Shown here: positions 9,979 to 57,504 of the stretch, piece by piece
Numbering within the stretch: the stretch's first letter is position 1
Layout of the letters: each line of letters starts with the position of its first letter
Assembly: GCA_030697825.1 (NCBI GenBank)
Contig: JAUYOW010000135.1
Coordinates: 8,556 to 72,555 of the forward strand
Direction: 5' to 3'
Source of the DNA: Gemmatimonadales bacterium
Lineage (GTDB): Bacteria; Gemmatimonadota; Gemmatimonadetes; Gemmatimonadales; JACORV01
Length of the DNA: 64,000 nucleotides
Notes under the pieces: generated by a model
Told to the model about the DNA's origin: nothing
Database searches by the model: none
What the model saw: only the letters and a program-made list of their open reading frames with translations
Translations under genes and position numbers: made by a program

Positions 9979-9999
9979 GCTATACCCTACACCCTTCCG

Positions 10000-22421: not shown

Positions 22422-22482
22422 TGAGCGACCATGTCGCCGCCGGCCCGAACCACAGCGCTCGCACGTGTTAGGCTACCCCATT

Positions 22483-22725
22483 TCACGCGAGGTCAGCCAG
22501 ACGGACACCGCGGCCGCGCCGCAGCGCCTCTCGTGCCCCAGCGACCTGCTCGAGGAACTCGGGATGGTGTTCCAAGCGGTACTCGAACCAGGCCTCCTCG
22601 GTGTCGAATCCGATCAGCACGCCAGCCGGGCGCCCGTGCTTCGTAATCACGATCTCCTCTCCTGCCGCCTGTCGCAGATACCGAGAGAAATCGTCCTTAA
22701 CTCGCGCCAGCGCCACCTTCTTCAT
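22483..22725 (-). CDS. Type II antitoxin, Phd/YefM family
   Basis: 80 aa. MKKVALARVKDDFSRYLRQAAGEEIVITKHGRPAGVLIGFD... is the classic Phd/YefM N-terminus. It lies downstream of, and overlaps by 29 nt, a RelE/ParE-like ORF. Confidence 0.8.
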   Translation of the reverse strand: MKKVALARVKDDFSRYLRQAAGEEIVITKHGRPAGVLIGFDTEEAWFEYRLEHHPEFLEQVAGAREALRRGRGVRLADLA

Positions 22726-23014
22726 CGGGCGTTCCCTCCTCTTTTAGCCAGGTCTCCGCCTGCGCCTTCGTCACGATGGCGAGAACCTCGACCCGCTTCT
22801 CCCCGACGTCGTAAAACACTCGTATATCCCCGACGCGCAATCGAAACTGCGGCTGCGCCAGTCCGCGGAGGCGCTTGATGCGACTCTTGCTAACGCGCGT
22901 GGGCTGGTGGGACAAGTGCCGGTCCATGGCATCCCGCACGACCGCCCGCAGGTTGGCCTTGAGCGCTCGGTACTGAGCCACCGCAGTTGGGGCGAGGATG
23001 ACCTCGTACGCCAT
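22697..23014 (-). CDS. Type II toxin, RelE/ParE superfamily (toxin-first gene order)
   Basis: 105 aa. ...RIKRLRGLAQPQFRLRVGDIRVFYDVGEKRVEVLAIVTK... matches the RelE/ParE core (YRLRVGDYRVIY...V.I..I..R). Confidence 0.75.
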   Translation of the reverse strand: MAYEVILAPTAVAQYRALKANLRAVVRDAMDRHLSHQPTRVSKSRIKRLRGLAQPQFRLRVGDIRVFYDVGEKRVEVLAIVTKAQAETWLKEEGTPDEEGGAGAS

Positions 23015-23073
23015 TCTGGCCAGAAGATAGCTACACTAGGATGGCCGGGCAAGGGGAGCCGGCGAACGGGGCA

Positions 23074-23299
23074 GCCTAACGAACAGGGTTTAGCTGCGGG
23101 CCGGCGCGTTGGCCGCGCTGGCCCCGCGTTACGCCGCCACAGCTCGCGAACCCAACATGCCAGCGCGGCCAGCCGGCCTCGTCAGCTACAACCCGAGCCT
23201 GTGCGAAAACACCGTTCTGAGCACCCCTAAGTTGTTGATTTACAACGCTGCCACTGCTGCCAAAGTGGCGTTTTCACACAGGCTCACCCGTAGTTAGGC
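23074..23299 (-). other. attC-like recombination site (R'' GCCTAAC ... R' GTTAGGC) interrupted by a 91-bp palindromic insertion
   Basis: GCCTAAC starts 1 nt after the ParE stop and GTTAGGC ends the site. Inner stem arms 23159-23194 / 23086-23122 are homologous to the site at 42364-42489. Confidence 0.5.
23195..23285. mobile_element. MITE-like 91-bp element with 19-bp terminal inverted repeats, flanked by a 4-bp direct repeat ACCC
   Basis: TIRs gagcctgtgcgaaaacacc (23195-213) and ggcgttttcacacaggctc (23267-285), 17/19 complementary. ACCC at 23191-94 and 23286-89. The interior is AT-richer than the surroundings. Confidence 0.4.
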
Positions 23300-23300
23300 G

Positions 23301-23594
23301 TTACAGGCGACTCTGCCACTCGCGCGGATCCCGACGCGCATGCAGAACTGCTAGAATCGCAATGCGCCCCGGTGTCGGCACGTAGTAGACGGAGAACGGA
23401 AAGCGGCGCAACCTTGCGCGGCGTGCATCTGGGGCGACCAGTTGATAGCCCTGAGGCATGCGTTGAATGAGGCCGAAGCAGACATCGACAGCACGCAAGA
23501 ACTCGGTGCCTAGCCCCGCAGCGCGGGTTTCGTACCACTCGGCAGCGAGCAGCATGTCCGTTTCGGCCGCTGCCCGGATCAGAAGGGTGGGCAT
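23301..23594 (-). CDS. Type II toxin, ParE/RelE family
   Basis: 97 aa. ...AAEWYETRAAGLGTEFLRAVD...RRARLRRFPFSVYYV...RIAILAVLHARRDPREW is a typical ParE-like toxin. Confidence 0.8.
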   Translation of the reverse strand: MPTLLIRAAAETDMLLAAEWYETRAAGLGTEFLRAVDVCFGLIQRMPQGYQLVAPDARRARLRRFPFSVYYVPTPGRIAILAVLHARRDPREWQSRL

Positions 23595-23810
23595 TTACCT
23601 GATGAGCTTGTACAGCCGCTCGCGTACCTGTTCCCAAGGAATGCCTGCTTCAGGGTGAGCGCGGTAGTCTGCCAGTCGCCGCTCGAGCTCTTGGAGATGC
23701 CACTCGGGGACTGGGATTTGCTCGTCGTCGATGCTATCCCAGAGATCCTCCACGAGCTGGAGGCGCTCCGGGACAGACAGGTGGCTGAAATCCATGAGTT
23801 TGGGTGCCAT
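23595..23810 (-). CDS. Addiction-module antitoxin (putative addiction module component family)
   Basis: 71 aa. LSVPERLQLVEDLWDSI...WHLQELERRLADYRAHPEAGIPWEQVRERL is the signature of this small antitoxin family. Its stop abuts the ParE start. Confidence 0.75.
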   Translation of the reverse strand: MAPKLMDFSHLSVPERLQLVEDLWDSIDDEQIPVPEWHLQELERRLADYRAHPEAGIPWEQVRERLYKLIR

Positions 23811-24085
23811 GGGCTCAATCTGGTGGGCGGACTGCCGGCTGGCAAGTGACGCAGATCCGAGACCGCATGGCCGGGACCATGTCCGTTCGGGTGGCTTCCT
23901 CTGTGACGCCTAACTTGTAGTTTACCCTACTTGTCTTCCAGTCCGGGGCGACGTTCGCGTGATAGCTCGGCCTACGCCGTGCTTATGCGACAAACCGGCG
24001 TATAACTCGGCCCGCAACAATACGACGCCCCGCCCCAACCCGCCAGCCGGCCGGCCAGCGGCGACGCACTAGAACCAGGACCGGG

Positions 24086-34327: not shown

Positions 34328-35188
34328 TCAGGGGAGTGTGGCCAGGAACTCGCGCGCCACCGCCACTATGTCCCGGTGCCGCACGTCCGCGAGGTAGTTG
34401 AGCCGCCGCATCGTGGCGTCGTCGATCCGGCCCGCCAGCTCCCGCAGCGCGGCGCCGACCTCGGGATGGCGCCGCAGCGTCTCGACTCGTACGACCGGCG
34501 CGGCCTGGTAGGGTGGGAAGTAGTGCCGGTCGTCCTCCAGTGCCACGAGGTGCAGCGCCTCGATCTGCCCGTCGGTGGAGTTCCCGGCGATCATGTCGAC
34601 CTGGCTGTCGGCGAGGGCGCGATACGTCAGTCCGAGGTCCATCACCCGCGGTGGGCCTGCGAACGGGAGGCCGTATGCTCTCTGGAGGCCGGCGAACCCG
34701 TCGGCGCGCTCCATGAATTCGTAGCCGAAGCCGCCGCGCCACGGCCTTGGCCGCAGCGCCGCCTGGGAAACCGTGCTGATCCCAGCCGCATCGTTCGCCC
34801 GGACTATCATCGCGAAGGTGTTGTTGAAGCCGAGCGGCGGGAGCCAGTCGGCACCGAATCGCCGCGAGTAGAGGCCGCGGACCTTCGCGAACGCCGTGTC
34901 GGGGTCCGTGATGACGGGCTGCTCGAGGATCGCAACGAGCGCAGTGCCGCTGTACTCGACGTACAGGTCGATCTGGCCGGCCGTGAGTGCCTGATGGCAC
35001 ACGAACGTCCCGCCCAGGTGGAACCGCCGCTCGACAGTGAGCGCCGTACGCCGCTCGATCTGCTGCGCGACGATCTCGCCCAGGATGTCCGACTCGGTGA
35101 AATTCTTCGATCCCACCACGATGCGGTCGCCGCCCCACCCACATGCCGAGACCACGACGAGCGCCACCAGTACCGACCTTCGCATCAT
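34328..35188 (-). CDS. Glycine betaine/choline-type (OpuBC/OpuCC-like) ABC transporter substrate-binding lipoprotein
   Basis: ATG 35188 (MMRRSVLVALVVVSAC...). VGSKNFTESDILGEIVAQQIE ... GQIDLYVEYSGTA is the OpuAC-domain signature. Confidence 0.85.
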   Translation of the reverse strand: MMRRSVLVALVVVSACGWGGDRIVVGSKNFTESDILGEIVAQQIERRTALTVERRFHLGGTFVCHQALTAGQIDLYVEYSGTALVAILEQPVITDPDTAFAKVRGLYSRRFGADWLPPLGFNNTFAMIVRANDAAGISTVSQAALRPRPWRGGFGYEFMERADGFAGLQRAYGLPFAGPPRVMDLGLTYRALADSQVDMIAGNSTDGQIEALHLVALEDDRHYFPPYQAAPVVRVETLRRHPEVGAALRELAGRIDDATMRRLNYLADVRHRDIVAVAREFLATLP

Positions 35189-35195
35189 GACCCCC

Positions 35196-35303
35196 ATCAC
35201 CTCATCAACTATTATCAACTATCACCTATCACCTATGATCACCTATCACCTATTATCACCTATCACCTCATCACCTATCACCTATACCTATCACCTCATC
35301 ACC
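35196..35303. repeat. Heptad tandem array: ATCACC x11 on the + strand, i.e. (GGUGAUA)n on the operon mRNA, occupying the permease/SBP intercistronic spacer
   Basis: Counted directly. Exact ATCACC starts at 35196, 35221, 35228, 35238, 35245, 35255, 35262, 35270, 35277, 35290 and 35298, plus ATCAAC variants. Confidence 0.9.
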
Positions 35304-35310
35304 TTGTAGG

Positions 35311-35952
35311 TCACCTCATCCCTCTCGGCGTCAACACCTTCTCCAAGCGCCCCAATACGAAATCCGCGACCAGCGCCATCAGCGCCGCCGGCAGCGCCCC
35401 GGCAAGTATGAGCGTGTCGTTCACCATGGCCACCCCGCGGAAGATGTACACGCCCAGACCGCCGGCGCCCACCGCCGCCGCGATCGTGGCGATTCCGATC
35501 CCCACGACCGTGGCCACCCGGATCCCGGCCATGATGACGCCCATCGCGAGCGGCATCTCCACCTGGCGGAGGATCTCCATATCGGTCATCCCCATGCCGA
35601 GCGCGGCCTCGCGCACCGCCGGATCGATGCCGCGGATCCCCGTGTAGGTATTGCGGATGATCGGCAGGAGCGCGTAGACGATCAGCGCAACGATCGCCGT
35701 CCGCGCGCCGATCCCTCCCAGGAAAGGCAGGGGGATGAGGAAGCCGAACAGCGCGAGGCTCGGGATCGTCTGGAGGACGTTGGCGGCGCCCAGCACCGGG
35801 CCGCTCAGCGAGGGCCGCCTGGCCAGCAGCACTCCGAGCGGCACGCCCACCAGGACGGCGGCGCCGGTCGCGGCGACCACGATGAGCAGGTGCTGGCCGG
35901 CGAGGTGCAGCACCTCCGCGCGGTTCCGGGAGAGGAAGTCGAGCAGGCTCAC
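35311..35952 (-). CDS. ABC transporter permease (OpuBB/OpuCB-like betaine/choline family)
   Basis: Track ORF trimmed to GTG 35952 (VSLLDFLSRNRAEV...), with a GTGA overlap with the ATPase gene. BPD-transporter EAA-like loop ...REAALGMGMTDMEILRQVEMPLA... Confidence 0.85.
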   Translation of the reverse strand: MSLLDFLSRNRAEVLHLAGQHLLIVVAATGAAVLVGVPLGVLLARRPSLSGPVLGAANVLQTIPSLALFGFLIPLPFLGGIGARTAIVALIVYALLPIIRNTYTGIRGIDPAVREAALGMGMTDMEILRQVEMPLAMGVIMAGIRVATVVGIGIATIAAAVGAGGLGVYIFRGVAMVNDTLILAGALPAALMALVADFVLGRLEKVLTPRGMR

Positions 35953-39118: not shown

Positions 39119-40228
39119 ATGCCCGCATGGCATCTCCTCGGCGGCAAGTCCGAGTTGCTGGCGCGCGTCCCGTTCACGGTCAAGCTGGAGCGCCACCAGA
39201 TCGCGGTCTTCTTCCACGAGGAACGGTTCCGGGCGATCGGCAACAGCTGCAACCACCAGGGCGGACCGCTGTGCGAGGGGCAGGTTCGCGGCGAGTTCGT
39301 GATGTGCCCGTGGCACGGCTGGGAGTACAGCGTCATCACCGGCAAGGGACCCGAGGGCTACGACGAGGAGCAGGTGCCGGTCTTCGAGGTAGAGGACCGA
39401 GAGGACGGCGTCTACGTCGCCACGCCGCCCGTGATGCCCCGCAAGCTCGTCAAGCACAAGCCGTCACACCTCCTCGAGGGGCACCAAAAGCCGGCCGGCG
39501 CGCCGGCCCGGGTACTGGGCATCTCCACCACCGCGATGGACGACGCCAATCCGCGTTACTCCACATCGGACTCGCTGCTCGGCCACGCCCTGGACCTGGC
39601 CCGCGAGCGGGGCGCCGAGACGAAGCTGGTGCGCTTGAACGAGCTGAAGTTCCGTCCCTGCGAGGGGAACTACTCGAAAGCGGCGCGCGCCTGTACCTGG
39701 CCGTGCGCGATCACCGAGCGCGACCCCGATGACCAGCTCACCGTAGTGTACGAGGGCCTGGTGCACTGGGCCGACGTGGTGCTCATCGCGACGCCGATCC
39801 GGTGGGGCAGCGCCTCGTCGCTGTACTTCAAGATGATCGAGCGCATGAACTGCATCCAGAACCAGATCACCATCCACAACAACGTCCTGATCGGGAACAA
39901 GGTCGCGTCGTTCATCATCACCGGCGGGCAGGACAACATCCAGGCGGTGGCGGGCGGGATGATGACCTTCTGGTCGGAGCTGGGCTTCGTCTTCCCGCCC
40001 TTCCCATTCATCGCCCATTCGCGCGGATGGGACGCCGAGGACATGCAGACCAACGTGCGGCAGGTGAAGGCGAGCGAAGCGCTCCGCACCGCCGCGCGTG
40101 AGCTGGCGGGGCGCGCGATCGACTTCTGGGGGATCGTGGACCGCCACCGCGCAGAGATGGGCAAGCCGATGGAGCGCGCGGGCCGGAAAGCACAATCGTT
40201 GGTGGCGAGAGAGGCGGCGACGACATGA
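39119..40228 (+). CDS. Fusion protein: N-terminal Rieske [2Fe-2S] domain plus C-terminal flavodoxin-like NADPH-dependent FMN reductase / iron-sulfur flavoprotein domain
   Basis: ATG 39119 is preceded by AAGGAAGGAG. Rieske motifs CNHQGGPL and CPWHGWEY. The C-terminal half (VLGISTT...LIATPIRWGSASSLYFKMIERM...FIITGGQDN) looks like an NADPH-FMN reductase fold. Confidence 0.7.
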   Translation: MPAWHLLGGKSELLARVPFTVKLERHQIAVFFHEERFRAIGNSCNHQGGPLCEGQVRGEFVMCPWHGWEYSVITGKGPEGYDEEQVPVFEVEDREDGVYVATPPVMPRKLVKHKPSHLLEGHQKPAGAPARVLGISTTAMDDANPRYSTSDSLLGHALDLARERGAETKLVRLNELKFRPCEGNYSKAARACTWPCAITERDPDDQLTVVYEGLVHWADVVLIATPIRWGSASSLYFKMIERMNCIQNQITIHNNVLIGNKVASFIITGGQDNIQAVAGGMMTFWSELGFVFPPFPFIAHSRGWDAEDMQTNVRQVKASEALRTAARELAGRAIDFWGIVDRHRAEMGKPMERAGRKAQSLVAREAATT

Positions 40229-40662
40229 CCGAGCGCATGCGGGTAGCGAAGGCGTACGAGAAGGCGCTTTTCGCGGGGCGAATGGACGAGGTAGCGGGCT
40301 ACCTCACCGACGACGTCGTGTACTGGGTCGCGGGCGCACCGCCGATCGGCGGCGAGTGGCGTGGCAAGGAGGCGGTGCTGCGCGCCTTCGACCAGCGCGA
40401 ACCCGGACTGGGTGCGGCCGACTGGGGGTATGAGGACCTCGAGCGCTCGTGGTACGATGCCGAGGACCGGGTGATCGTCGAGATCCGCGAGCGCAGCTGG
40501 CTCAAGAGCGCGCCGTCCGACGTGATGGACCAGCGGACCTGCGCCGCGATCCGGTTCCGCGGAGAAAAGATCTGCGAAATGCGCGACTACACCGACTCGC
40601 ACTTGTACGAGGAGTTTCTGAAGCGGCACCGCGGTCAGCTGCCGAAGTTCGCGGGGCGCTGA
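40225..40662 (+). CDS. SnoaL-like / NTF2-fold protein (ketosteroid-isomerase-like)
   Basis: 145 aa. ...AKAYEKALFAGRMDEVAGYLTDDVVYWVAG...RGKEAV...F... is the pattern of SnoaL-like domains. ATGA overlap with the upstream gene. Confidence 0.65.
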   Translation: MTERMRVAKAYEKALFAGRMDEVAGYLTDDVVYWVAGAPPIGGEWRGKEAVLRAFDQREPGLGAADWGYEDLERSWYDAEDRVIVEIRERSWLKSAPSDVMDQRTCAAIRFRGEKICEMRDYTDSHLYEEFLKRHRGQLPKFAGR

Positions 40663-40783
40663 GAGCGGCCGTTGGCCGATGGCCATTGGCCGTTCGGCGA
40701 GCATGAGGGCGTGCCGCATCGCGACGTAGTAGTCCGCCAGGGCGCGCCTCACGCTCGACCACCGATGGCGCCGCACGCGCGAC

Positions 40784-40809
40784 GCGCCTATGCCTAAGCG
40801 GATAGGCGC
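40784..40809 (+). terminator. 8-bp hairpin (GCGCCTAT / ATAGGCGC, 10-nt loop GCCTAAGCGG) downstream of the SnoaL-like gene
   Basis: Read directly. There is no U-tract, so terminator function is speculative. Confidence 0.25.
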
Positions 40810-40931
40810 CGGGTGGGCGGGCCGGCTTGCCCGGTTGGTGGCGTGAGCGCACCTTGAACGGCGTCGCTGCGACCGGCCCGGGGGAACGGTGGCGCCGGCG
40901 CCGGCCGCTGCATATCATCGCGAGTCTTGCA

Positions 40932-41027
40932 GGCTAACTCGGCTACGGGGCCGAGCTATCACGCGAGCTTCGCAGCGGTTGTGGTTTTGGACGTGAAGCC
41001 CAATTGCTAGTAAAGACCTGGTTAGCC
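40932..41027 (+). other. attC- or attI-like site preceding cassette 1 (GGCTAAC ... GTTAGCC)
   Basis: The terminal 7-mers are exact reverse complements, and the complementarity extends outward (TGCAGGCTAAC / GTTAGCCAGGCA). There is an internal hairpin CTCGGC-TACGGG-GCCGAG. The inner arms are otherwise poorly paired. Confidence 0.35.
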
Positions 41028-41031
41028 AGGC

Positions 41032-41466
41032 ATGGCGACAGACCACGCACTGAAACTGGGGAAGCTTGTTGGCAACCTCCAATCCCTGGAGGCGGTTCTT
41101 CGCGTCTATCTGCTCAAGATTGGGGAGAAACCGAGACCGGCGAAGCAACAGTCGCATTCGTATTGGGATCTCGTCGTCGGCGACGTAATCAACGCTGACG
41201 AATTCTCGAACTACGACACCCTCGGCACTCTCGTCAGGAAATTCAACGACGACGTCCGCCCGCGCGACACCTCACTATGCGTCGACCCCGCAGTGGTAGA
41301 CGTTCGCGATCTGCTGGCTCACGGACGTGTCGCTGGCTCAGCCGACGACACGGCGACCTTGATGATCGTGAAGTTCGACAAACCGTCCGCCGGGACAGTG
41401 ACAGTGGTGGCGAGCGCCCTGAATGGACGACGCCTGGTTTGCCGCGAACGTCGCATTATCTTATGA
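41032..41466 (+). CDS. Cassette 1 ORF, hypothetical protein (144 aa as listed; 3' end probably frameshifted)
   Basis: Track ORF. The last ~15 residues (NGRRLVCRERRIIL) look out-of-frame, whereas the +1 frame from 41423 reads MDDAWFAANVALSYEQLIRVGKALERYAA and stops at the TAA inside the GCCTAAC box. Confidence 0.5.
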   Translation: MATDHALKLGKLVGNLQSLEAVLRVYLLKIGEKPRPAKQQSHSYWDLVVGDVINADEFSNYDTLGTLVRKFNDDVRPRDTSLCVDPAVVDVRDLLAHGRVAGSADDTATLMIVKFDKPSAGTVTVVASALNGRRLVCRERRIIL

Positions 41467-41506
41467 GCAACTCATCAGGGTCGGAAAGGCACTCGAGCGG
41501 TATGCG

Positions 41507-41604
41507 GCCTAACTTCCGGACGAACCCGATGGCGGAGTCGATTCCCGTTTCGCCGTGGCAACGCGCGTGCCGGCTCCACCCACGGGTTATCCGGCGCGTT
41601 AGGC
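41507..41604 (+). other. attC-like recombination site, 98 nt, canonical architecture
   Basis: GCCTAAC-TT-CCGGA-CG-AACCCG ...(variable)... CGGGTT-A-TCCGG-CGC-GTTAGGC. It has R and L box pairing, an unpaired spacer and extrahelical bases. It starts 41 nt after the ORF stop. Confidence 0.7.
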
Positions 41605-41631
41605 GGCCCGCTAGAGATCGAGGACTGTCCG

Positions 41632-42330
41632 TTGGACGCGATTGACTGGAGAAGGATTGTGCGCTACTTGCCTTCATCGTCCCAATGGCGTAACTGGAGC
41701 CTTCCCAGCCGATTGACGGCGATAGGCGCGGCGATTTCAGTCGTTTCTCTCATAGTAGCTGTTGTGCTTGCATTGCTCGACCAAGCTGCGGATCGGAGCC
41801 GCGCTCGCTTGATGGAGGAGGAAGCCGAGCTACGAAGTCGGCTCGAGTCCGCTGCCCTATCATCAGTTCAGGGCAAGCAGGACGAGCAGTTCCTTGCGCT
41901 CCTCTCGGCGCTCGCGGTGCTTATTGGTGAGCAATCTTCTCTCTCTAGCCGAGTGGCCGATACGGTCACTTTTTCCGGCACAGGCGTTGGCGAGTTCCCG
42001 ACCGGTCTCGCAGTTCTGTCGCGAGTCTTTCAGCAGGATTACCCAGGTGTAGCGAACGACGAGTTGCTTGTCGAGATCGTTGTCGGGTTACCTTCTCCTT
42101 CCGGGCAGAACGACGCACGCCCTGGGGTGCTCGTACAGATTCACCAGCAGGGCTTAAGCTACGAGACGAACGTCTTTCGCGTTGGTGAGCTCGAGCCCCA
42201 TGTTCTCATGCGGGCCCTCGCTGCGGCTGGATTACGCGTGTCCTCAGAGGTCGCGGCCGAAGGCGGCGTCTGGGTCACGATATTCGACCCCGCAAACGGG
42301 AAATCTGCAAGACTTCGAGCGCCGTCTTGA
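41632..42330 (+). CDS. Cassette 2 ORF, single-pass membrane protein of unknown function (start TTG 41632 or GTG 41659)
   Basis: 232 aa. One TM (LTAIGAAISVVSLIVAVVLALL), a charged coiled-coil-like stretch, then a ~130-aa C-terminal domain. No family recognised. Confidence 0.55.
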   Translation: MDAIDWRRIVRYLPSSSQWRNWSLPSRLTAIGAAISVVSLIVAVVLALLDQAADRSRARLMEEEAELRSRLESAALSSVQGKQDEQFLALLSALAVLIGEQSSLSSRVADTVTFSGTGVGEFPTGLAVLSRVFQQDYPGVANDELLVEIVVGLPSPSGQNDARPGVLVQIHQQGLSYETNVFRVGELEPHVLMRALAAAGLRVSSEVAAEGGVWVTIFDPANGKSARLRAPS

Positions 42331-42363
42331 ATCGATGCCCTGAGGCCAGTCTCCGGGTGGGCC

Positions 42364-42489
42364 GCCTAGTTAGGATTTGAACCTGCGGAGCCGGCTGGCC
42401 GCGCCGGCGACCAGGCGGTAAGTGGTTCAGGAACCGCGCACCGGCGCGGCCACGACGCCGGCTCACAGGTTAAAACCACTCTGTTAGGC
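42364..42489 (+). other. attC-like recombination site, 126 nt (degenerate R'' GCCTAGT, R' GTTAGGC)
   Basis: Long imperfect palindrome with arms at 42373-42408 and 42441-42477. It is homologous, with compensatory changes, to the site at 23074-23299 on the other strand. Confidence 0.6.
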
Positions 42490-42523
42490 AGCAGCGGTTA
42501 CTCACACGCACCTAGGCGGCACC

Positions 42524-42940
42524 ATGACCGCGTGGCTCATTCTCCTAATCATCTTCGTTGCCGGGTGTATCGGTGGCATTACCAATGCGGCGATTGCTGG
42601 CGAGTTGCGCTTGCCGTACACCGATCCCGAAGCGCGGGTCTACAGGCCTGGCTGGGTCGGGAACGTGCTCATAGGGGGCATAGCGGCTCTCGTCTTCTGG
42701 GGCCTATACGGCCCGATGGCCGCGGCAGTTCTCATGGGCCCTATCGATCCGGCGGCTCCGCAGCCTCTACTTCGAGTCTCTGAGCTGTTCGCGGCATTGC
42801 TCACGGGAATCGGCGGCGGTAGACTACTTACTGCGGAGGTCGAACGGCGCGTGTTCGATAGAGAGAAGAAGGCCCTCACCGATACGAAGGACGCTCTTGC
42901 AACTGCTGTTAAGAGCCTTGCTGAGGAGGTAAGACAATGA
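42524..42940 (+). CDS. Cassette 3 ORF A: small 3-TM glycine-zipper-rich membrane protein with a C-terminal amphipathic helix
   Basis: 138 aa. TM segments WLILLIIFVAGCIGGITNAAIAG, WVGNVLIGGIAALVFWGLYGPMAAAVLMG, LFAALLTGIGGGRLL. ATGA overlap with ORF B. Confidence 0.6.
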   Translation: MTAWLILLIIFVAGCIGGITNAAIAGELRLPYTDPEARVYRPGWVGNVLIGGIAALVFWGLYGPMAAAVLMGPIDPAAPQPLLRVSELFAALLTGIGGGRLLTAEVERRVFDREKKALTDTKDALATAVKSLAEEVRQ

Positions 42941-43389
42941 CGGACGGCACTCCAAAGGCACCCGATATCGATGCAATTGAGCTTATCGAAACGCTCGCAA
43001 CCCAGATCCCGAGCTCCAGTTCCTTTACCTCGGCAAGCCTAGCCCAACAGATCCTGGAGCAAACCCGTCGGCTCCACGCCTTCCGCAGTGCCCTCGTGGT
43101 TGGCCGCGAGGCGGGCGCCAAGGCCCACGAGATGGTCGAGGCGCAGGTACAGGAGGCGGAGGTCGGGAAGACCTACCAAGGCAAGGTGAAGACGACGACG
43201 GCCTTCGGGGCGTTCGTCGAGATCTTGCCCGGGGTGGAGGGACTGGTCCACATCTCGGAGCTCCAGCACGGCCGCACCGAGAAGACCGAAGACGTCGTGA
43301 AGAAGGGCGACTCGGTCACGGTCAAGGTGCTGGAGGTCGACGAGCACGGGAAGATGAGGCTCTCGCGCAAGGCGGTGCTCGAGAAGTAG
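42937..43389 (+). CDS. Cassette 3 ORF B: chimeric protein, novel ~55-aa N-terminus fused to a PNPase-like linker plus S1 RNA-binding domain
   Basis: The C-terminal AEVGKTYQGKVKTTTAFGAFVEILPGVEGLVHISEL...GDSVTVKVLEVDEHGKMRLSRKA is an S1 domain closest in style to the PNPase C-terminus. Codon usage switches at about nt 43100. Confidence 0.6.
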   Translation: MTDGTPKAPDIDAIELIETLATQIPSSSSFTSASLAQQILEQTRRLHAFRSALVVGREAGAKAHEMVEAQVQEAEVGKTYQGKVKTTTAFGAFVEILPGVEGLVHISELQHGRTEKTEDVVKKGDSVTVKVLEVDEHGKMRLSRKAVLEK

Positions 43390-43403
43390 GACCTCCTACT
43401 GAA

Positions 43404-43439
43404 GGCACCCACGCCCGGTAGGTGCCCGCACCTAGGTGC
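43404..43439 (+). terminator. Hairpin GGCACC-N11-GGTGCC followed by the 12-bp palindrome GCACCTAGGTGC, then a T-rich stretch; possible terminator
   Basis: Hairpin arms at 43404-09 / 43421-26, palindrome at 43428-39, followed by ...GCTGCTGTTTAGTATC. Confidence 0.35.
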
Positions 43440-43506
43440 CGCCTCGCTGCTGTTTAGTATCAAGTTTGAAGTGCAACAGCGGTTCATGAAGCAAAGCATT
43501 GGGGAG

Positions 43507-44715
43507 TCAGCCACTGCCTCGCGCGGGATTGCTTCGCGGCACGCCGAACGCGACCAAGCCGCCAATAGCCATTACCGCCGCCGCCGCGACGAACGCCGTC
43601 ATCGGGCCGGCCCGGTCGTATGATGCTCCGGTCGCAACAGGGCCGAGCAGGCGCCCCAGAGCGCTGAGTGACTGCGCGACTCCGAGGACCGTTCCCTGCT
43701 CCGCCGGGCCCGCCAGGACGGACACCATGCCGGTGGCCGCCGGAGAGAACACGCTCTGCGAGAAGGCCAGCACGACCGTCCAGCCGTAGAGCACGGGCAC
43801 CCGAGACAGGAACGGCACCGCGGCGACGCCGGCCGCCATACCGAACAGACCGAGGATCAAGAGCGCGCGGTCACCGGTGAGGCGCACCAGTCGCCCGAAC
43901 AGCCAACCCTGCACCAGCGCCGCGGTGACCCCGATGACGGTGAACAGGAACCCCAGGTCCCGCTCGTGCCACCCGAAGGTCGTGTTGGCGAATAACGGCA
44001 GCGCCACCGTGTAGCCCGCGAACGCGAAGGGCGCGAGCGCCCACACGATCAGGAGCGGGCGCAATCGAGCGTTCCTGAACGCCTCCGCCAGGTGCCTGAA
44101 CGGCCAGAAGTCGGTGGCGGTCCGGTGCTCTTCCCTGAGCGACTCCGGGAGTATCCGGTAGGCCAGCACGAAGTTCCCGAGGGAGAGCCCCGCGGCCACC
44201 AATCCGGGGCCGGTGTGCCCCCAATAGTGTCCCGCGATGCCGCCGATCGCCGGCCCGAGCGTGAAGCCGATGCCGAAGGCCGCGCCGATCATCCCCATCC
44301 CCTTCGACCGCTCCGCGCTGGTGGTGACGTCGGCGATGTAGGCCTGCGCCGCGGAGATGTTGCCGCCCGCGAAGCCGGAGACCAGCCGCGCGATGAGCAG
44401 CACGCCGAAGGAGGGAGCGAACGCGAACATGATGTAACCGGCAGCGTTGATGACGGTCGTCGCGAGGATGATCGGCCGCCGCCCCACCCGGTCCGACCAA
44501 CGGCCTAGCAGCGCGGTCGCGATGAACTGCATGCCCGAGAACGCGCCCATCAGCACGCCGAACCCCAGCGCGTTCGCCCCGAACCGCTGCGAGTAGTACG
44601 GCAGTATGGGGATGATTATCCCGAATCCGATGAGGTCTATCAGGACCGTGAGGAAGATGACGCCGAGGCGGCCTCTCATCGTCGGCGGGGGGGCGGGAAG
44701 CGGGGGCTCACCCAT
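43507..44715 (-). CDS. MFS transporter (drug:H+ antiporter / TCR-like); start uncertain (44715 or 44679)
   Basis: 12-TM style sequence. MFS motif A-like GRWSDRVGRRP. N-terminus ...LGVIFLTVLIDLIGFGIIIPILPYY. Confidence 0.8.
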   Translation of the reverse strand: MGEPPLPAPPPTMRGRLGVIFLTVLIDLIGFGIIIPILPYYSQRFGANALGFGVLMGAFSGMQFIATALLGRWSDRVGRRPIILATTVINAAGYIMFAFAPSFGVLLIARLVSGFAGGNISAAQAYIADVTTSAERSKGMGMIGAAFGIGFTLGPAIGGIAGHYWGHTGPGLVAAGLSLGNFVLAYRILPESLREEHRTATDFWPFRHLAEAFRNARLRPLLIVWALAPFAFAGYTVALPLFANTTFGWHERDLGFLFTVIGVTAALVQGWLFGRLVRLTGDRALLILGLFGMAAGVAAVPFLSRVPVLYGWTVVLAFSQSVFSPAATGMVSVLAGPAEQGTVLGVAQSLSALGRLLGPVATGASYDRAGPMTAFVAAAAVMAIGGLVAFGVPRSNPARGSG

Positions 44716-45790
44716 CGCGTTTCTTCTTGACATGCTTGTGGAGCGCGCGACCCGCCGACCGCTCCTTTCGATCGGCCGTGGCAGGGCCCTGGTGCTCGCC
44801 GCGCGCGCGCGCCGCGAGCTCACGCACCAGCTTGTGGTAGCTCTCGAGCCGGTCGGCGGCGATCCGCCCCTCGGCCAGCGCCGCCTTCACGGCGCAACCG
44901 GGCTCCGGGCCGTGCGCGCAGTCGCGGAACGCGCAGTGCTCGCCCAGCGACTCGACATCGTCGAAGGCGCTCAACAGCCCGGGGCCGGCGCCGCTGAGCT
45001 GAAGCTCGCGCATGCCGGGCGTATCGATGAGTATCCCACCCCCCGGCAGCAGCACCAGCTCGCGGCGCGCGGTCGTGTGGCGGCCCTTGTCGTCCCCCTC
45101 GCGGATCTCGCCGGTCGCCTGGCGCTCGAAGCCGACGAGCGCATTGATCAGGGTGCTTTTCCCCACGCCGGACGAGCCGAGGAGCGCGCCGGTGCGGTGT
45201 GGGAGCAGGTGCGCGCGCAGCGCGTCCACCCCCAGCCCGGTCTTGGCGCTGGTCACGTGCACCTGCGCGCCGACCGCGACAGCCTCGACCTCTCGCACTA
45301 TCGGCGCGGTATCGACCATGCGGTCTGCCTTCGACAGGACCACGACCGGGGCCGCACCGCTTTCCCAGGCCAGCGCGAGGTAGCGCTCCAGGCGGCGCAG
45401 GTTCAGCTCTGCGTTGAGCGAAGTGACGATGAAGACGACATCGACATTGGCCGCGATGGTCTGGTCGCCATGCTCGCGTCCCGCGGCCTTGCGGGTGAAA
45501 AGGCTCGAGCGCGGCAGCACGGCGTCAATGATCCCGGGCCCGTCGCCGGACGACGGGGAGAACGCGACCCAGTCGCCGACCGCGGGCAGGTCCGAGCGGG
45601 AGCCGGCGGCGTGGCGCATGCGCCCGCCTACCGAGGCTTCGGCTTCGCCCTGCTCGGTGAGGAGCTCGTAGACGCTGCGATGCTCCACGGCGACGCGCGC
45701 GGGGGTCCGTCCAGCCGTGGCGTGCGGCGCGAAGTGCGCCGCGAATCGTTCGCTCCAGCCGAGTCGCTCGAGCTCGGCTCGTCCCGTCAC
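44708..45790 (-). CDS. rsgA: Ribosome small-subunit-dependent GTPase A
   Basis: 360 aa. Circularly permuted GTPase order (...VLSKADR..., GSSGVGKSTLINAL, ...DTPGMRE) and C-terminal zinc motif CAFRDCAHGPEPGCAV. Confidence 0.85.
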   Translation of the reverse strand: MTGRAELERLGWSERFAAHFAPHATAGRTPARVAVEHRSVYELLTEQGEAEASVGGRMRHAAGSRSDLPAVGDWVAFSPSSGDGPGIIDAVLPRSSLFTRKAAGREHGDQTIAANVDVVFIVTSLNAELNLRRLERYLALAWESGAAPVVVLSKADRMVDTAPIVREVEAVAVGAQVHVTSAKTGLGVDALRAHLLPHRTGALLGSSGVGKSTLINALVGFERQATGEIREGDDKGRHTTARRELVLLPGGGILIDTPGMRELQLSGAGPGLLSAFDDVESLGEHCAFRDCAHGPEPGCAVKAALAEGRIAADRLESYHKLVRELAARARGEHQGPATADRKERSAGRALHKHVKKKRDG

Positions 45791-51844: not shown

Positions 51845-53712
51845 TCCGACGTCTCCTTCCACTCCGGTTGGGTGGCCTTGTCGAGCAGGAACGGCCCCAG
51901 CACGAGATGGTCGATGTGAGTGCGCATGAAGCACTGGTACGCGTCCGCGGGCGTGCAAACGATGGGCTCGCCGCGGACGTTGAAGGAGGTGTTCACCACC
52001 ACCGGGCACCCGGTGAGCGTTTCGAACTGCTTTATCAGATCGTAGTAGTCCGGGTTCACGTCGTGATCGACCGTCTGCACCCGCGCCGAGTAGTCGATGT
52101 GCGTGATCGCGGGAACGTCCGACCTCGGCACGTTGAGCTGGTCGATGCCCCAGAGCTTGCGCTGTTCCGCGCTCATGGGGATCTGCCGCTCCTTCTTCAC
52201 CGGCGCCACCAGCAGCATGTAGGGCGAGTCGCAGTCCATCTCGAACCAGTCCTGCACCCGCTCGCGCAGCACGCTCGGCGCGAAGGGACGGAACCCTTCG
52301 CGGAACTTGATCTTGATGTTCATGTCGGCCTGCATCTTCGGGCTGCGCGGGTCGCCCAGGATGCTCCGACAACCCAGCGCCCGCGGCCCGAACTCCATCC
52401 GACCGTTGAACCAGCCGACGATCTTCTCGTGCGCGAGCAGCTTGGCGACGCGTCCGAGCAGCTCCTGACGCTCCAGCCGGACGTAGCCGGCTCCCTGCTT
52501 CTTGAGGAACCGCTCTATCTCCTCCGGCGTAAAGCCCGGGCCGAGGTAGGCGCCCTTCATGCTGTCCCTGCCCGGCGTCACGGTGCGCGGCTTCTGGCAG
52601 TAGCGGTGCCAGATCAGCTGCGCCACTCCGAGCGCGCCGCCGGCGTCGCCCGCGGCCGGCTGGATCCAGAGCCGCTTGAACGGGCCCTCGCGCAAGAGCT
52701 TCCCGTTGCCGACGCAGTTCAACGCGACGCCGCCCGCCAAGCACAGGTTTTCGAGTCCGGTCTCCCGATGCACCGTGCGCGCCATCCGCATCATGATCTC
52801 TTCCGTCACCTCCTGCACGGAGCGCGCGAGGTCCATCTCCTTCTGCGTAAGGTTCGTCTCAGGCACCCTCGGCGGCCCGCCGAACAGCTTGTCGAACTCG
52901 CCGTTCGTCATCGTGAGGCCGGAGAGGTAGTTGAAGTACTTCTGGTTCAACGTGAAGGAGCCGTCCTCCTTGAGGTCCACCAGCTCCTTGAAGATCAGGT
53001 CCACGTACTTGGGCTCTCCGTATGGCGCGAGGCCCATGACCTTGTACTCACCCGAGTTGACCTTGAAGCCCGTGTAGTAGGTGAACGCCGAGTAGAGGAG
53101 GCCGAGCGAGTCGGGCCAGCGCAGCTCCTTGAAGAGCTCGAGGTTGTTGCCGCGGCCGACACCGAAGGCCGCCGTCGCCCACTCCCCCACCCCGTCCATG
53201 GTGAGGATGGCCGCTTCCTCGAAGGGCGATGGGAAGAAGGCGCTCGCCGCGTGCGACTCGTGGTGCTCGGAGTAGAGGAGTTCCCCTTCGTAACCCAGCT
53301 CGTCTCGGAGCTGGTTCTCCAGGTAGAGTTTCTCCTTGATCCAGAGCGGCCCCGCCATCAGGAACGACTTGAAACCCCGGGGCGCCACGCCCAGGTAGGT
53401 CTCGAGGATCCGCTCGAACTTGAGCAGCGGCTTGTCGTAGAACCCGACGTACGCGAGATCCTGGGCCGTGATGCCCGCCGTGCGCAGGCAGTACTCGACC
53501 GCGCGCCTGGGATACGAGGCGTCACCTTTCTTGCGCGTGAACCGCTCTTCCGAGCCGGCGGCGAGGATCTCGCCGTCCCGGAGGATGCAGGCCGCGCTGT
53601 CATGGTAGAAGGCGGAAATGCCCAGAATATGCTGCTGGCCTGTCGCCAACGACGACGCCCCTATCGCTTGGTGGCCCGGACCCGCCCGGGTAGCAGCATG
53701 ACGCGGACTCAC
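51817..53712 (-). CDS. Carbamoyltransferase (NodU/CmcH/SxtI family); start uncertain (53712 or TTG 53649)
   Basis: ...ILGISAFYHDSAACILRDGEILAAGSEERFTRKK..., ...HHESHAASAF..., ...NTSFNVRGEPIV... are hallmark motifs. Confidence 0.9.
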   Translation of the reverse strand: MSPRHAATRAGPGHQAIGASSLATGQQHILGISAFYHDSAACILRDGEILAAGSEERFTRKKGDASYPRRAVEYCLRTAGITAQDLAYVGFYDKPLLKFERILETYLGVAPRGFKSFLMAGPLWIKEKLYLENQLRDELGYEGELLYSEHHESHAASAFFPSPFEEAAILTMDGVGEWATAAFGVGRGNNLELFKELRWPDSLGLLYSAFTYYTGFKVNSGEYKVMGLAPYGEPKYVDLIFKELVDLKEDGSFTLNQKYFNYLSGLTMTNGEFDKLFGGPPRVPETNLTQKEMDLARSVQEVTEEIMMRMARTVHRETGLENLCLAGGVALNCVGNGKLLREGPFKRLWIQPAAGDAGGALGVAQLIWHRYCQKPRTVTPGRDSMKGAYLGPGFTPEEIERFLKKQGAGYVRLERQELLGRVAKLLAHEKIVGWFNGRMEFGPRALGCRSILGDPRSPKMQADMNIKIKFREGFRPFAPSVLRERVQDWFEMDCDSPYMLLVAPVKKERQIPMSAEQRKLWGIDQLNVPRSDVPAITHIDYSARVQTVDHDVNPDYYDLIKQFETLTGCPVVVNTSFNVRGEPIVCTPADAYQCFMRTHIDHLVLGPFLLDKATQPEWKETSDWRSEFQLD

Positions 53713-54016: not shown

Positions 54017-57000
54017 ATGTCACATCGCAAGGCCGTGCACTGGTATGCGTGTGCGCTGTCCATCGCCCTCTCCCTTCTCACCTTTCCCACTTCGCTGTCC
54101 GCGCAGTCCCAAGCCACGTCCGGCGTCATCCGCGGCGTGGTGCACGGGCCGGATGGGAACGTGGTGAACGGGGCGACGGTCGTGCTGCGCAACACCGAGA
54201 CCAACATCGAGCGCAGCGTGCCGACCAACGAGCGGGGCATCTTCGTCGCCTCGCTGCTGCCGGTGGGCACCTACAACGTCATCGCCCGCTCTCCGGGCTT
54301 CAGCGAGGCCCGGCGGCAGGGCGTGGCGCTGCGGCTGGGAGAGACGGTCTCGCTGGACCTGGCGCTCGGCGCGGTCACGCTGGCGCCGATCGAGGTCACC
54401 TCGACGCCGCCGGTGGTGGACCCGAGCCGGGTGGAAGCCTCGACGCGCCTCAGCGCCGACGAGGTCGCGGGCCTGCCCAACAACGGGCGCAACTACGTCA
54501 ACCTGATGACCCTCACGCCCAACGTGGCAATCGTGCAGGGCCCGGACGGCGACGAGATCTCCGTCAGCGGCCAGCGCGGCATCTACAACAACATTTCGGT
54601 GGACGGGGCGGATTTCAACAATCCGTTCTTCGGCGAGCAGCGCGGAGGCCAGCGGCCCCCGTTCACCTTCAACCTGGACGCGGTCCAGGAGATGGTGGTG
54701 ATCGCCGACGGGGCGAGCGCCGAGTTCGGGCGGTCGGGCGGCGGGTTCGTGAACGTCCTCACCAAGTCGGGCACCAATACGCTTCGCGGCACCGCGCACT
54801 ACTTCGGACAGTCGAACACCTTCTCGTCCGACCTCTTCCGCGGCCAAGGCAACCCCGACTTCTCCCAGCATCAGTTCGGCTTCACGCTGGGCGGACCGAT
54901 CATCCGGGACCGGGCGTTCTTCTTCGTCGCGTACGACCAGCAGATCGCCAGCGGGACCAAGCAGACCAGCCCGAGCCGGATCGACGCGTCGCTGCGGGCC
55001 TGGATGGACACCGCGTTCAGCGGAGCGCTGGCCGGCGACTACGACCCCATTGAGCGGACGAACAACGCGAACGCGCTGATGGTCAAGATCGACTGGCGCC
55101 TGAACCCAAGGCACAGCCTGGCGCTCAAGTACAACTACACCAACAGCCGGCAGGAGAACGGCACGTTCGACGTGGACACGTGGGCGCGCAGCGCCAACGC
55201 CGTCGAGCGCGACTACTCCAACGCGATCAACGGCAGCCTGGTGTCCCTCCTTTCGCCAACGATTTCGAACGAGTTCCGGTTCCAGTACTCCCGTGAGGAC
55301 CGGCCCCGCCCATACGAGGGCCCCGGCTTCCCAGGCACCAGCGGTGCGCTGTTCAACACCGGCACACGGCCGTTCCCCGACACCGGCGCCGACTTCGCCA
55401 ACGGCTATCGGTGGGGAATGCCGTTCTTCATCCCGATCACTGCGTACGACACTCGCATCCAGCTAATTGACAACCTGAGCGTGGCACGCGGCAGCCACCT
55501 GTGGAAGGCGGGCTTCGAGTACAACCGCACCGAGGCCAACCAGACGTTCATCGGTTTCGCCAACGGCCGGTACATCTTCGGCAGCGTACCCGGCTTCTTG
55601 AACTACGTCGCCCAGGGCCCGACCTACGTCGAGTGCGATGACGGCACGTCGAACAACACCGGGTCGTGCGGCGCCGCCAACATCACCGGCCCGCTCCTGC
55701 TCTTCCTCCAGTTCGCGCCGGTTCAGGCGGGCACCTCGGTCCGGGACGCGGGCACGCAGTCCATCGTGCAGACCGAGTTGGCGGTCTTCCTACAGGACAC
55801 GTGGCGGCCGCGACCCAACCTGACCGTGAACTACGGCCTAAGGTGGGAAGCGCAGATCCAACCAGACCCGATCACCCCGCCCGGGACGGTGTTCTATCAG
55901 CCGTTCATCGCGGCGCGGGCCTCGGGCAACACGTTTCCCTCGGACGGCACCATCCCGGCCGACTGGAAGATGTTCCAGCCGCGGCTGGGCATCGCGTGGG
56001 ACGTGAACAACAACGGACGGCAGGTGGTCCGAGCCAGCGCGGGCATCTATGCCGCGCGCTCGCCCGGCCTGATCTTCGCCAGCACGCGTACCAGCAACGG
56101 CTCGATCGGGCAGACGGTCTTCCAGGCGAGCTTCTTCAACGGCTTCGGTGCCATCCCGCCGGTCTACGGGCCGACGCTGCCGAGCTTCGGCACCGGCACG
56201 CCCACGCGGCCGGGCATCTTCGTAACGGACGCCGATTTCCAGAACCCGCGCACCTACGCCATCAACCTGGCCTACGAACGCGAGCTCCGGCCCGGCCTGG
56301 CTGGTTCCGTCAGCTACGCCATGGCAGCCACCAACAACCTGAACCGGTTCATCGACCGGAATGACGCGGTCTTCGGAAGCCCCTACACGAATTTCCCCGG
56401 CACCACGGCCAACGGACTCGGGGGCGTGACGGTGCTCGAGAGCTCGGCGAAGTCGCGCTATCACGGCTTCACCGCGTCGCTGCACGGCTCGATGACGAGC
56501 CGGGTGGACTTCCAGGCCAACTATACGCTGTCGTTCGACAAGTCCGACGACGACAACGAGCGCGACCCGTTCAGCTTCCGCTATGCTAAGGCCAACCGCC
56601 TCGAGCGCGAGTACAACTGGTCCGACCGCGACCAGCGGCACCGGGTCAACATTTGGGTGCTCGAACGGTTGCCATGGGATCTGTTCCTCAACCATCGCAT
56701 CAGCTTCTACTCGAAGCAGCCGACGTCCGACGCGTGCGGCACGAACAACCAGGGCACCGGCCAGCCGGCGGTGACACCGGGGGACCGAGTTTGCCGAGAT
56801 GCTGGCGGGACCGAGACCGGCGTGGTCCTCCAGCGCAACACGCTCCGGAAGGACAACGCGTTCTTCCAGTGGGACCTGCGGATCTCGCGTCCGTTCCGCG
56901 TGGGCACCTCCCAGCGCGCCGAGGTGATCCTCGAAGTCTTCAACGTGACCAACACCTTCAACCTCCGGAACCCCAGCGCGCCGGGGCTACTGTTCAACTT

Positions 57001-57070
57001 CGACGGCACGATCCGTAGTGGCCTGGGCGATCCGCGACGGTTGCAGGGCGGATTGCGGTGGGAGTTCTAG
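54017..57070 (+). CDS. TonB-dependent outer-membrane receptor with N-terminal carboxypeptidase-regulatory-like domain (Oar-like)
   Basis: Track ORF 53744..57070 trimmed to ATG 54017 (MSHRKAVHWYACALSIALSLL...). Signal peptide, SGVIRGVVHGPDGNVVNGATVVLRN... (CarbopepD_reg), a plug-like region, and a beta-barrel ending in the aromatic ...GLRWEF. Confidence 0.85.
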   Translation: MSHRKAVHWYACALSIALSLLTFPTSLSAQSQATSGVIRGVVHGPDGNVVNGATVVLRNTETNIERSVPTNERGIFVASLLPVGTYNVIARSPGFSEARRQGVALRLGETVSLDLALGAVTLAPIEVTSTPPVVDPSRVEASTRLSADEVAGLPNNGRNYVNLMTLTPNVAIVQGPDGDEISVSGQRGIYNNISVDGADFNNPFFGEQRGGQRPPFTFNLDAVQEMVVIADGASAEFGRSGGGFVNVLTKSGTNTLRGTAHYFGQSNTFSSDLFRGQGNPDFSQHQFGFTLGGPIIRDRAFFFVAYDQQIASGTKQTSPSRIDASLRAWMDTAFSGALAGDYDPIERTNNANALMVKIDWRLNPRHSLALKYNYTNSRQENGTFDVDTWARSANAVERDYSNAINGSLVSLLSPTISNEFRFQYSREDRPRPYEGPGFPGTSGALFNTGTRPFPDTGADFANGYRWGMPFFIPITAYDTRIQLIDNLSVARGSHLWKAGFEYNRTEANQTFIGFANGRYIFGSVPGFLNYVAQGPTYVECDDGTSNNTGSCGAANITGPLLLFLQFAPVQAGTSVRDAGTQSIVQTELAVFLQDTWRPRPNLTVNYGLRWEAQIQPDPITPPGTVFYQPFIAARASGNTFPSDGTIPADWKMFQPRLGIAWDVNNNGRQVVRASAGIYAARSPGLIFASTRTSNGSIGQTVFQASFFNGFGAIPPVYGPTLPSFGTGTPTRPGIFVTDADFQNPRTYAINLAYERELRPGLAGSVSYAMAATNNLNRFIDRNDAVFGSPYTNFPGTTANGLGGVTVLESSAKSRYHGFTASLHGSMTSRVDFQANYTLSFDKSDDDNERDPFSFRYAKANRLEREYNWSDRDQRHRVNIWVLERLPWDLFLNHRISFYSKQPTSDACGTNNQGTGQPAVTPGDRVCRDAGGTETGVVLQRNTLRKDNAFFQWDLRISRPFRVGTSQRAEVILEVFNVTNTFNLRNPSAPGLLFNFDGTIRSGLGDPRRLQGGLRWEF

Positions 57071-57132
57071 ATTAGACTCAGAAGGAAGAGTTGCAGGATC
57101 GAGAGTTGCAGGAAAAAAGCGAAGACGTCGGA

Positions 57133-57160
57133 GGGCCCGGTGAGCAACCCGGGCCCTTTG
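57133..57160 (+). terminator. Rho-independent terminator after the TonB-dependent receptor gene
   Basis: GGGCCCGG (57133-40) / CCGGGCCC (57149-56) with an 8-nt loop, followed by TTTGG. Confidence 0.6.
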
Positions 57161-57183
57161 GCTTCAGCGGCCGCGCGGCGCGG

Positions 57184-57468: not shown

Positions 57469-57504
57469 CCGTTGAACTTAACGCCCCATCCACAGGAATC
57501 GCGT

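Follow-up and report, generated by a model that had tools for sequence, protein, structure and literature searches.

A 64-kb window from a Gemmatimonadales metagenome-assembled genome (MAG; contig JAUYOW010000135.1, with annotated locus tags that include Q8Q85_07070 and Q8Q85_07080) contains, from position 41021 to about 43100, what is with a probability of roughly 0.85 a three-cassette chromosomal integron cluster without an integrase in the window. By "the window" we mean this entire stretch of 64,000 nucleotides (nt). Each cassette consists of a gene without a promoter and an attC site at its end; the integron integrase (IntI) acts on the folded bottom strand of attC and cleaves between the G and the TT of the GTTRRRY core. 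Within the cluster, cassette 1 extends over 41022-41598, cassette 2 over 41599-42483 and cassette 3 from 42484 to about 43100. The region holds four open reading frames (ORFs), all on the + strand (ORF1, 41032..41466; ORF2, 41632..42330; ORF3, 42524..42940; ORF4, 42937..43389), with coordinates as listed in a first-pass annotation that was made from the letters of the sequence and that had proposed an integrase-less cassette array here. That proposal is supported with corrections: its composition, ORFs and boxes stand, while the first of its sites, the frame of ORF1, the family status of ORF4 and the right-hand end do not, and the array proves to be decayed and to end in a chimeric gene.

The array is defined by two elements that lie behind ORFs and on the same strand, in the ORF-then-site order that had been proposed. 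The first, at 41507..41604 (+ strand, 98 nt), reads R'' GCCTAAC - TTCCG - L'' GAC[G]AACC ... L' GGTTATC - CGGCGC - R' GTTAGGC, and the second, at 42364..42489 (+ strand, 126 nt), reads R'' GCCTAGT - TAGGA - L'' TTT[G]AACC ... L' GGTTAAA - ACCACTCT - R' GTTAGGC. The layout shared by 16 aligned reference sites consists of a 7-nt R'' box, a 5-nt spacer, an 8-nt L'' box whose position 4 is an additional base, a hairpin of variable sequence, a 7-nt L' box, a 5-6-nt spacer and a 7-nt R' box. On inspection, both window sites keep this register, and their L'' boxes have the additional base where 16/16 of the reference sites have it. The spacers measure 5 nt (5') and 6 nt (3') in the first site and 5 nt and 8 nt in the second, and an 8-nt 3' spacer is also found in the attC sites of arrays from soil that are discussed below. 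The outer boxes of the first site, GCCTAAC and GTTAGGC, are complementary at 7/7 positions. When folded as single-stranded DNA, both sites form long imperfect hairpins, with z-scores of -2.4/-2.6 for 41507-41604 and -5.4/-5.9 for 42364-42489.

Covariance models provide a more formal comparison. Model R1 was built from 16 distinct class 1 attC sites of 14 plasmid integrons (aadA1/2/5, aadB, dfrA5/12/27, arr-3, aac(6')-Ib, aac(6')-29a, blaVIM-2, cmlA1, estX, psp, qacL and gcuD) and encodes 16 base pairs, and model R2 combines these class 1 sites with attC sites of the soil arrays; the window sites were excluded from both. Each model was searched against the whole window on both strands (128 kb searched), with filters off for R1. 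The top match of R1 is 41507-41604, on the + strand and at full length (21.2 bits, E 0.004), all others having E > 2. This score level is attributed to attC because the non-training attC sites of the soil arrays score alike under R1, at 19-23 bits. With R2, the first rank goes to 41507-41604 (29.9 bits, E 4.5e-5) and the next to 42364-42489 (18.3 bits, E 0.04); the two matches are of full length and on the + strand, and every remaining match in the window has E >= 0.46; with these surrogate models, the two best matches thus coincide exactly with two of the three sites of the first-pass annotation. The opposite strand of 41507-41604 scores only 6.8-9.7 bits, so that the orientation of this site is defined and agrees with that of the ORFs. 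A regular-expression scan for strict box pairs recovers 41507-41604 alone among the three proposed sites, and an Rfam scan of 40000-44500 at E <= 10 is empty, with no attC-like match. Taken together, sequence, spacing, structure and covariance-model score agree in identifying 41507-41604 and 42364-42489, computationally, as integron attC sites.

CALINs (attC-site clusters that have no integron integrase) are defined by a minimum of two attC sites that share a strand and are separated by less than 4 kb, with no integron integrase (PMC4889954). With two + strand attC sites 760 nt apart and no IntI-like sequence in the whole 64-kb window, the array fits this definition, and the suggestion that it resembles a CALIN is upheld. 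The best tblastn E is 0.58 with an IntI1 query that shows 100% identity to the IntI1 annotated on thousands of plasmids. This query finds nothing in the spacer between the upstream SnoaL-like gene and the island (40663..40931, + strand), which is GC-rich (0.73), non-coding and without an ORF. A complete integron was considered and rejected, there being no intI in the window, no recognisable attI and no sigma-70-like Pc promoter in 40600-43600. A scan of the same interval for sigma-70-like promoters found none, which fits promoterless cassettes. Integrases that accompany homologous cassettes elsewhere were likewise rejected as IntI: the one in contig L065 scores 32.8 bits against an integrase_gron cut-off of 265, and those in L077 and L079 are FimB/E-like invertases.

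The foreign composition of the island is equally distinct. As the first-pass annotation had remarked, composition drops between the SnoaL-like gene and the convergent gene of the major facilitator superfamily (MFS), with a GC content of about 0.60 over 40932-43100 (0.55-0.63 in 300-nt windows across 40950-43050) compared with about 0.70 on either side. The GC content at third codon positions (GC3) is 0.62-0.73 in the island's cassette genes and 0.88-0.93 in host genes. All six boxes that had been listed are in place (GGCTAAC 40932-38, GTTAGCC 41021-27, GCCTAAC 41507-13, GTTAGGC 41598-604, GCCTAGT 42364-70 and GTTAGGC 42483-89), and the site lengths of 96, 98 and 126 nt that follow from them are correct. 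Exact GCCTAAC/GTTAGGC heptamers occur 9 times in the window versus 2.9 expected, a count that 0/100 shuffles reached, and 7/9 copies reside inside two low-GC islands, namely this one and a second at 22467-23914 (island B). Other, moderately low-GC stretches (0.64-0.66) are located at 9500-11000, 34500-35500, 52000-53500 and 54500-57500. None of these four contains an exact GCCTAAC/GTTAGGC box, and their sole match to the attC models is weak and partial (52611-52666, E 0.46).

Cassette 3 recurs in other arrays. Soil arrays L069-L074, which are the JGI/ENA metagenome contigs that carry protein P0002, contain the same cassette, composed of an ORF3 homologue (76% identity) and a small partner gene, and there the pair constitutes exactly one cassette, bounded by near-identical attC sites that follow the pattern GCCTAAC-AAGCG-CTT[G]AAGC...GCTTAAG-CGCGATCC-GTTAGGC. 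The attC sites of L069-L072 reach 38-46 bits with R2, which was partly trained on them, and 21-23 bits with the independent R1. Like the window array, the soil arrays display GCCTAAC/GTTAGGC core boxes, an 8-nt 3' spacer and toxin-antitoxin cassettes as neighbours, in this case BrnT/BrnA, alongside AraC plus two-SDR and other cassettes. Unlike in the window, their copy of the cassette is complete, with a 65-residue partner and its own attC, and the attC sites are nearly identical within an array. In L069, L070 and L071 the same set of cassettes is present in an order that differs by sample, which is direct evidence of shuffling among relatives of cassette 3. In L070, one 132-residue cassette is found on both sides of the array.

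At the left edge, the interval 40932..41027 (+ strand) had been proposed as the first cassette site, since GGCTAAC and GTTAGCC lie 96 nt apart there and are perfectly complementary. This candidate was rejected. The interval possesses the outer boxes only, with no L boxes on inspection and no internal palindrome (fold z = -0.4), and a local model search gives only 5.4 bits, on the wrong strand. Only the GTTAGCC at 41021..41027 (+ strand) behaves as a cassette junction, being the left junction (R' core) of cassette 1, situated 4 nt ahead of the ORF1 start codon; an ORF1 homologue in contig L076, where the array has attC matches, has its start 5 nt behind a GTTAGAC. The leading edge also carries an 18-nt motif, GGCCGAGCTATCACGCGA, at 40949..40966 (+ strand), and an identical copy is located at the leading edge of island B (23955..23972, - strand). 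About 25 nt around this motif are similar between the two arrays, both copies preserve two small hairpins, and in both arrays the motif lies 40-55 nt upstream of the first G/TTAG junction. No further copies exist in the window at up to 3 mismatches, nor does the motif occur in any other locus that was fetched; 28 matches in metagenome contigs all lack flank similarity and appear to be due to chance. The motif may be what remains of an attI, a site favoured for insertion or a regulatory element.

The gene of cassette 1 (41032..41512, + strand) belongs to a family with 87 detected homologues, nearly all of them 159 residues in length, and in the assembled sequence is frameshifted. When the homologue P0085 is aligned by tblastn, frame 1 accounts for its residues 1-130 (41032-41421) and frame 2 for its residues 131-159 (41423-41509), and the base at 41422 is one too many. 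The restored protein ends in ...ERYAA, and its true stop, TAA at 41510-12, falls within the R'' box (GCC-TAA-C). A stop codon inside R'' is a familiar feature of cassettes. The end given earlier for this ORF, 41466, does not hold, as the gene runs to 41512.

At the right-hand end, ORF4 is a cassette/host chimera. Its first ~55 codons are the partner gene of cassette 3 (42937..43104, + strand), and the remainder is a pnp-type 3' fragment (43105..43389, + strand, 285 nt) that comprises the KH-S1 linker, the S1 domain and the stop codon and continues the reading frame of the partner gene, to which it is fused. Although ORF4 had been described as belonging to no recognised family, its residues 57-150 correspond to positions 599-689 of 689 in TIGR03591 (E 1e-28), and the S1 domain, of the type found in polynucleotide phosphorylase (PNPase), scores 70.1 bits with PF00575 against a cut-off of 22. 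The S1 part is a gene fragment, not a full PNPase; neither a second pnp copy nor a full pnp gene was found in the window, and the fragment is far from any rpsO-pnp context. GC3 shifts from 0.66 in codons 1-56 to 0.96, the host's codon usage, in codons 57-150, the DNA homology to the cassette in contig L067 ends at 43058, and the model search finds no attC behind ORF4. The partner gene has thus lost its tail and its attC, which are replaced by the pnp fragment. Codon usage and the limit of DNA homology place the end of foreign DNA at about 43058-43105 and not at 43446, where the island had been taken to end. Behind the pnp fragment is an inverted repeat with arms at 43404-43418 and 43426-43440 that are 73% complementary.

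The array is therefore largely a fossil, decaying and no longer maintained, because ORF1 is frameshifted, the R'' box of 42364-42489 is degenerate and the last cassette is truncated. A number of points weigh against its interpretation as an integron cassette cluster. No attC lies ahead of ORF1, given the failure of 40932-41027, and none terminates the last cassette. The outer boxes of 42364-42489 (GCCTAGT/GTTAGGC) are complementary at only 5/7 positions owing to the degenerate R'', and this site was missed by R1 and detected only once soil attC sites had joined the model. Both models stand in for IntegronFinder's own attC model, and the E-values that they give are approximate. Moreover, no integron integrase adjoins any of the homologous cassettes whose contexts were fetched, and a search for a close relative among 185,579 species genomes, by way of the RsgA-like gene in the flank, yielded a best identity of about 50%. 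GC-rich genomes abound in hairpins, partial model matches at E 0.5-10 exist elsewhere in the window, and 40932-41027 itself has boxes without attC structure, as might be expected if the palindromes were generic intergenic repeats behind ORFs (repetitive extragenic palindromes or terminators) and the low GC content marked some other horizontally acquired island. Yet full-length, strand-specific matches are found at two sites only, which rank 1 and 2 in 128 kb; the exact core heptamer is enriched and concentrated in the two low-GC islands; the spacing and the extra-base asymmetry match those of the reference attC sites; and the same cassette resides in true attC arrays elsewhere. Within the window, the generic-repeat explanation is largely refuted, and we consider it very improbable. 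It is still harder to credit that the change in composition and the ORF4 chimera reflect an assembly artefact joining two organisms, even though the source is a MAG and the ORF4 junction joins DNA of GC3 0.66 to DNA of GC3 0.96. In an independent assembly (Logan, run SRR13727529), contig L001 covers 41442-43613 with a single mismatch; it takes in both attC sites and the ORF4 junction and reaches into the beginning of the host MFS gene, so that the junction is no artefact of MAG assembly. In addition, the sequence passes without a break from host genes of the window into the left edge, and the reading frame is kept across the ORF4 junction.

As to how the cassettes came together, we infer from established integron biology that they would have been assembled by IntI acting on folded attC bottom strands, the insertions having taken place within an ancestral integron or, alternatively, at a secondary site of the genome, in which case the integrase would have acted in trans. 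Insertion of cassettes at genomic attG sites (5'-GWT-3') has been shown experimentally and has been proposed as the origin of small CALINs (10.1101/2022.09.11.507474). There is a substantial chance, if somewhat short of even, that no local integron ever existed here and that the cassettes were inserted one by one at attG by an IntI encoded elsewhere or on a visiting element. Such a history would suit the presence of two small arrays, each with 2-3 cassettes and separated by 17 kb, near which there is no insertion sequence, transposase or intI remnant, and it would account for left junctions that are bare GTTAGCC or GTTAGGC with no upstream attC hairpin, as a host-G/TTRRRY junction predicts. 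However, the ~25-nt motif shared ahead of both arrays agrees better with an ancestral platform common to the two, or with a preferred site, than with random GWT sites, the right end of the array is an illegitimate fusion rather than an attC-G/TT-host junction, and no IntI is known for this genome. The element at 41021 to about 43100 is read as a three-cassette CALIN, in which cassette 2, lying between the two attC sites, is in principle the sole cassette still excisable if IntI were supplied.

Island B (22467..23914, - strand; GC 0.62, GC3 0.68-0.76) is a second, small integrase-less cassette array, which was absent from the first-pass list. It is located between uppS and a DUF1761-like gene and has boxes at 22467, 23074, 23293 and 23908. 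Its elements are, in order, a cassette with Unstab_antitox and ParE, an attC with a hairpin insertion of about 100 nt (23299-23074), a cassette with ParE and Phd/YefM, and a terminal R'' box. The first pair consists of an Unstab_antitox match (E 6e-23) and a ParE_toxin match that is slightly below threshold (22.2 bits, cut-off 23), and the second of ParE_toxin (23.4 bits) and PhdYeFM_antitox (E 1e-9). On the basis of these adjacent toxin and antitoxin family matches, both are predicted to be type II toxin-antitoxin cassettes. The attC of island B (23074-23299, - strand) is 226 nt long and has the sequence of a canonical attC, GCCTAAC-TACGG ... L'' GTT[G]TAGC ... L' GCTAAAC-CCTGTTC-GTTAGGC, being interrupted between the 5' spacer and L'' by the hairpin, whose arms (23195-23213 and 23267-23285) are found nowhere else in the window. 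Partial model matches fall at the L box, at 23088-23192 on the - strand.

The cargo of the main array consists of proteins that give no PADLOC match in any of the four cases, and its functions can be proposed only conditionally. Cassette 1 may encode a HEPN-type RNase. The motif R92 D93 x x A H97 G98 R99 (RD..AHGR) is invariant or nearly so among 54 homologues and has the R-x4-6-H pattern by which the HEPN superfamily is recognised, and in an AlphaFold2 model of the family (pLDDT, the predicted local distance difference test, of 92) it is located in a helix at residues 87-97. Weak matches to HEPN families in Pfam are seen for 15/54 members, to HEPN_RiboL-PSP in 11 (best E 0.0068), HEPN_MAE_28990 in three and pEK499_p136 in one. 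A Foldseek search of the PDB with the model returned nothing with E < 0.6, and a profile search of PDB sequences was empty. The assignment as a HEPN-like RNase is thus possible, and is a lead rather than a finding. The settings of ORF1 homologues include small plasmids (L077-L081) as well as the cassette array of L076.

Cassette 2 appears to encode an orphan membrane-anchored protein. ORF2 (41632..42330, + strand; GC3 0.62) probably starts with GTG at 41659, giving a predicted single-pass membrane protein of 223 residues. The only full-length relative is an identical Logan protein, in a search of 5.8e9 proteins and an exhaustive one of 1.84e9 representatives. At least 34 other, weak matches are confined to the N-terminal ~45-90 residues, where a core of about 45 residues has the pattern MR.LPS..QW.NWSLPSKLTAIG followed by a transmembrane helix (ORF2 copy MRYLPSSSQWRNWSLPSRLTAIG, window 41659-41800). 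In the proteins inspected that share this module, the C-terminal parts are mutually unrelated and range from 85 to 311 residues. Neither ORF2 nor its N-terminal module matches a Pfam family. LPS..QW.NWSLPSKLTAIG may be an undescribed membrane-anchor module that carries hypervariable C-terminal domains.

Cassette 3 comprises two genes that conceivably act as a toxin-antitoxin or defence pair. ORF3 (42524..42940, + strand) encodes a conserved, glycine-rich, three-helix membrane protein with 82 detected homologues. Its AlphaFold2 prediction (pLDDT 85) has a pair of transmembrane helices together with one short hairpin and one long helix. Foldseek searches of the PDB and BFVD with this model gave no match with E < 0.6. 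Members of the family resemble YLATT (PF20303) and DUF4257 (PF14074), which are likewise small, glycine-rich, three-helix membrane proteins, by weak matches only: YLATT in 40/50 (best E 0.014) and DUF4257 in 19/50 (best E 5e-4). An assignment of ORF3 to YLATT was rejected, as every YLATT match falls well short of the gathering cut-off of 26.7 bits, the window protein scoring 10.4 bits, and a search for literature on YLATT returned nothing relevant. In every fetched context a small ORF lies behind the ORF3 homologue, usually overlapping it or within about 10 nt. These partners are 65-101 residues long in L063-L075, and a further small ORF follows the copy in L062. In an alignment that leaves out the small ORF of L062, the partners share QIPSSSSF.SASLA with the first ~55 residues of ORF4. 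Unlike in the YLATT setting, the partner is a small helical protein in which no YEATS-like domain was detected. Beyond the soil arrays, ORF3 homologues are accompanied by a phage-type integrase (L065), a Multi_ubiq/E2/ThiF cluster (L075) and transposases (L063, L064). A weak attC-like match follows the copy in L065 (E 0.11). Conceivably, ORF3 and its partner could represent an undescribed membrane-acting toxin-antitoxin or anti-phage module that spreads by integron cassette and by other mobile islands; this proposal is taken together with that of the ORF2 N-terminal module and is speculative and rather unlikely to be correct.

The array can be compared with integron elements that have been described. 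In common with published CALINs (2016, PMC4889954), it has attC sites behind ORFs, on one strand and with no nearby integrase, its cargo is mostly without homologues or known function, and its attC sites are mutually dissimilar. It departs from them in its visible decay (a frameshifted gene, a degenerate R'' and a last cassette that is truncated and fused to a host fragment), in the ~25-nt motif shared ahead of both arrays and in its host, a Gemmatimonadales MAG. Class 1 arrays, such as those with aadA2, aadB and dfrA12 cassettes on plasmids, share with it the attC architecture, from R'' RYYYAAC to R' GTTRRRY, and promoterless cassettes that all face in one direction. Unlike these, the window array lacks intI, a recognisable attI, a Pc promoter and resistance genes, its attC sites are longer (98 and 126 nt), and one 3' spacer is 8 nt in length rather than 5-6 nt.

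CALINs number in the thousands, most of them with cargo of unknown function. The array described here is thus a known and common kind of element, with uncharacterised cargo, as is usual. It illustrates that a reading of raw sequence alone can reveal a real integrase-less array in an uncultured high-GC lineage, and it documents how such an array decays: a gene becomes frameshifted, a box of an attC erodes and a cassette gene fuses with part of a host gene. The cargo offers three leads, namely a widespread 159-residue family that is possibly HEPN-like, a recurring pair of a membrane protein and its partner, and an anchor module that otherwise unrelated proteins share at the N-terminus; a toxin or defence function is conceivable for each of the three. 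Only the ORF3-partner module and the ORF2 N-terminal module have some novelty. That the cargo contains an undescribed system, as the first-pass annotation had supposed, is a possibility.

Beside the MFS gene to the right of the island, on the - strand, is the RsgA-like GTPase gene (44708-45790) that served in the search for relatives. Its matches at about 50% identity are mostly from Bacillaceae, together with one Holophagales MAG, a result that reflects either a poorly sampled lineage or an unusual history of this gene.

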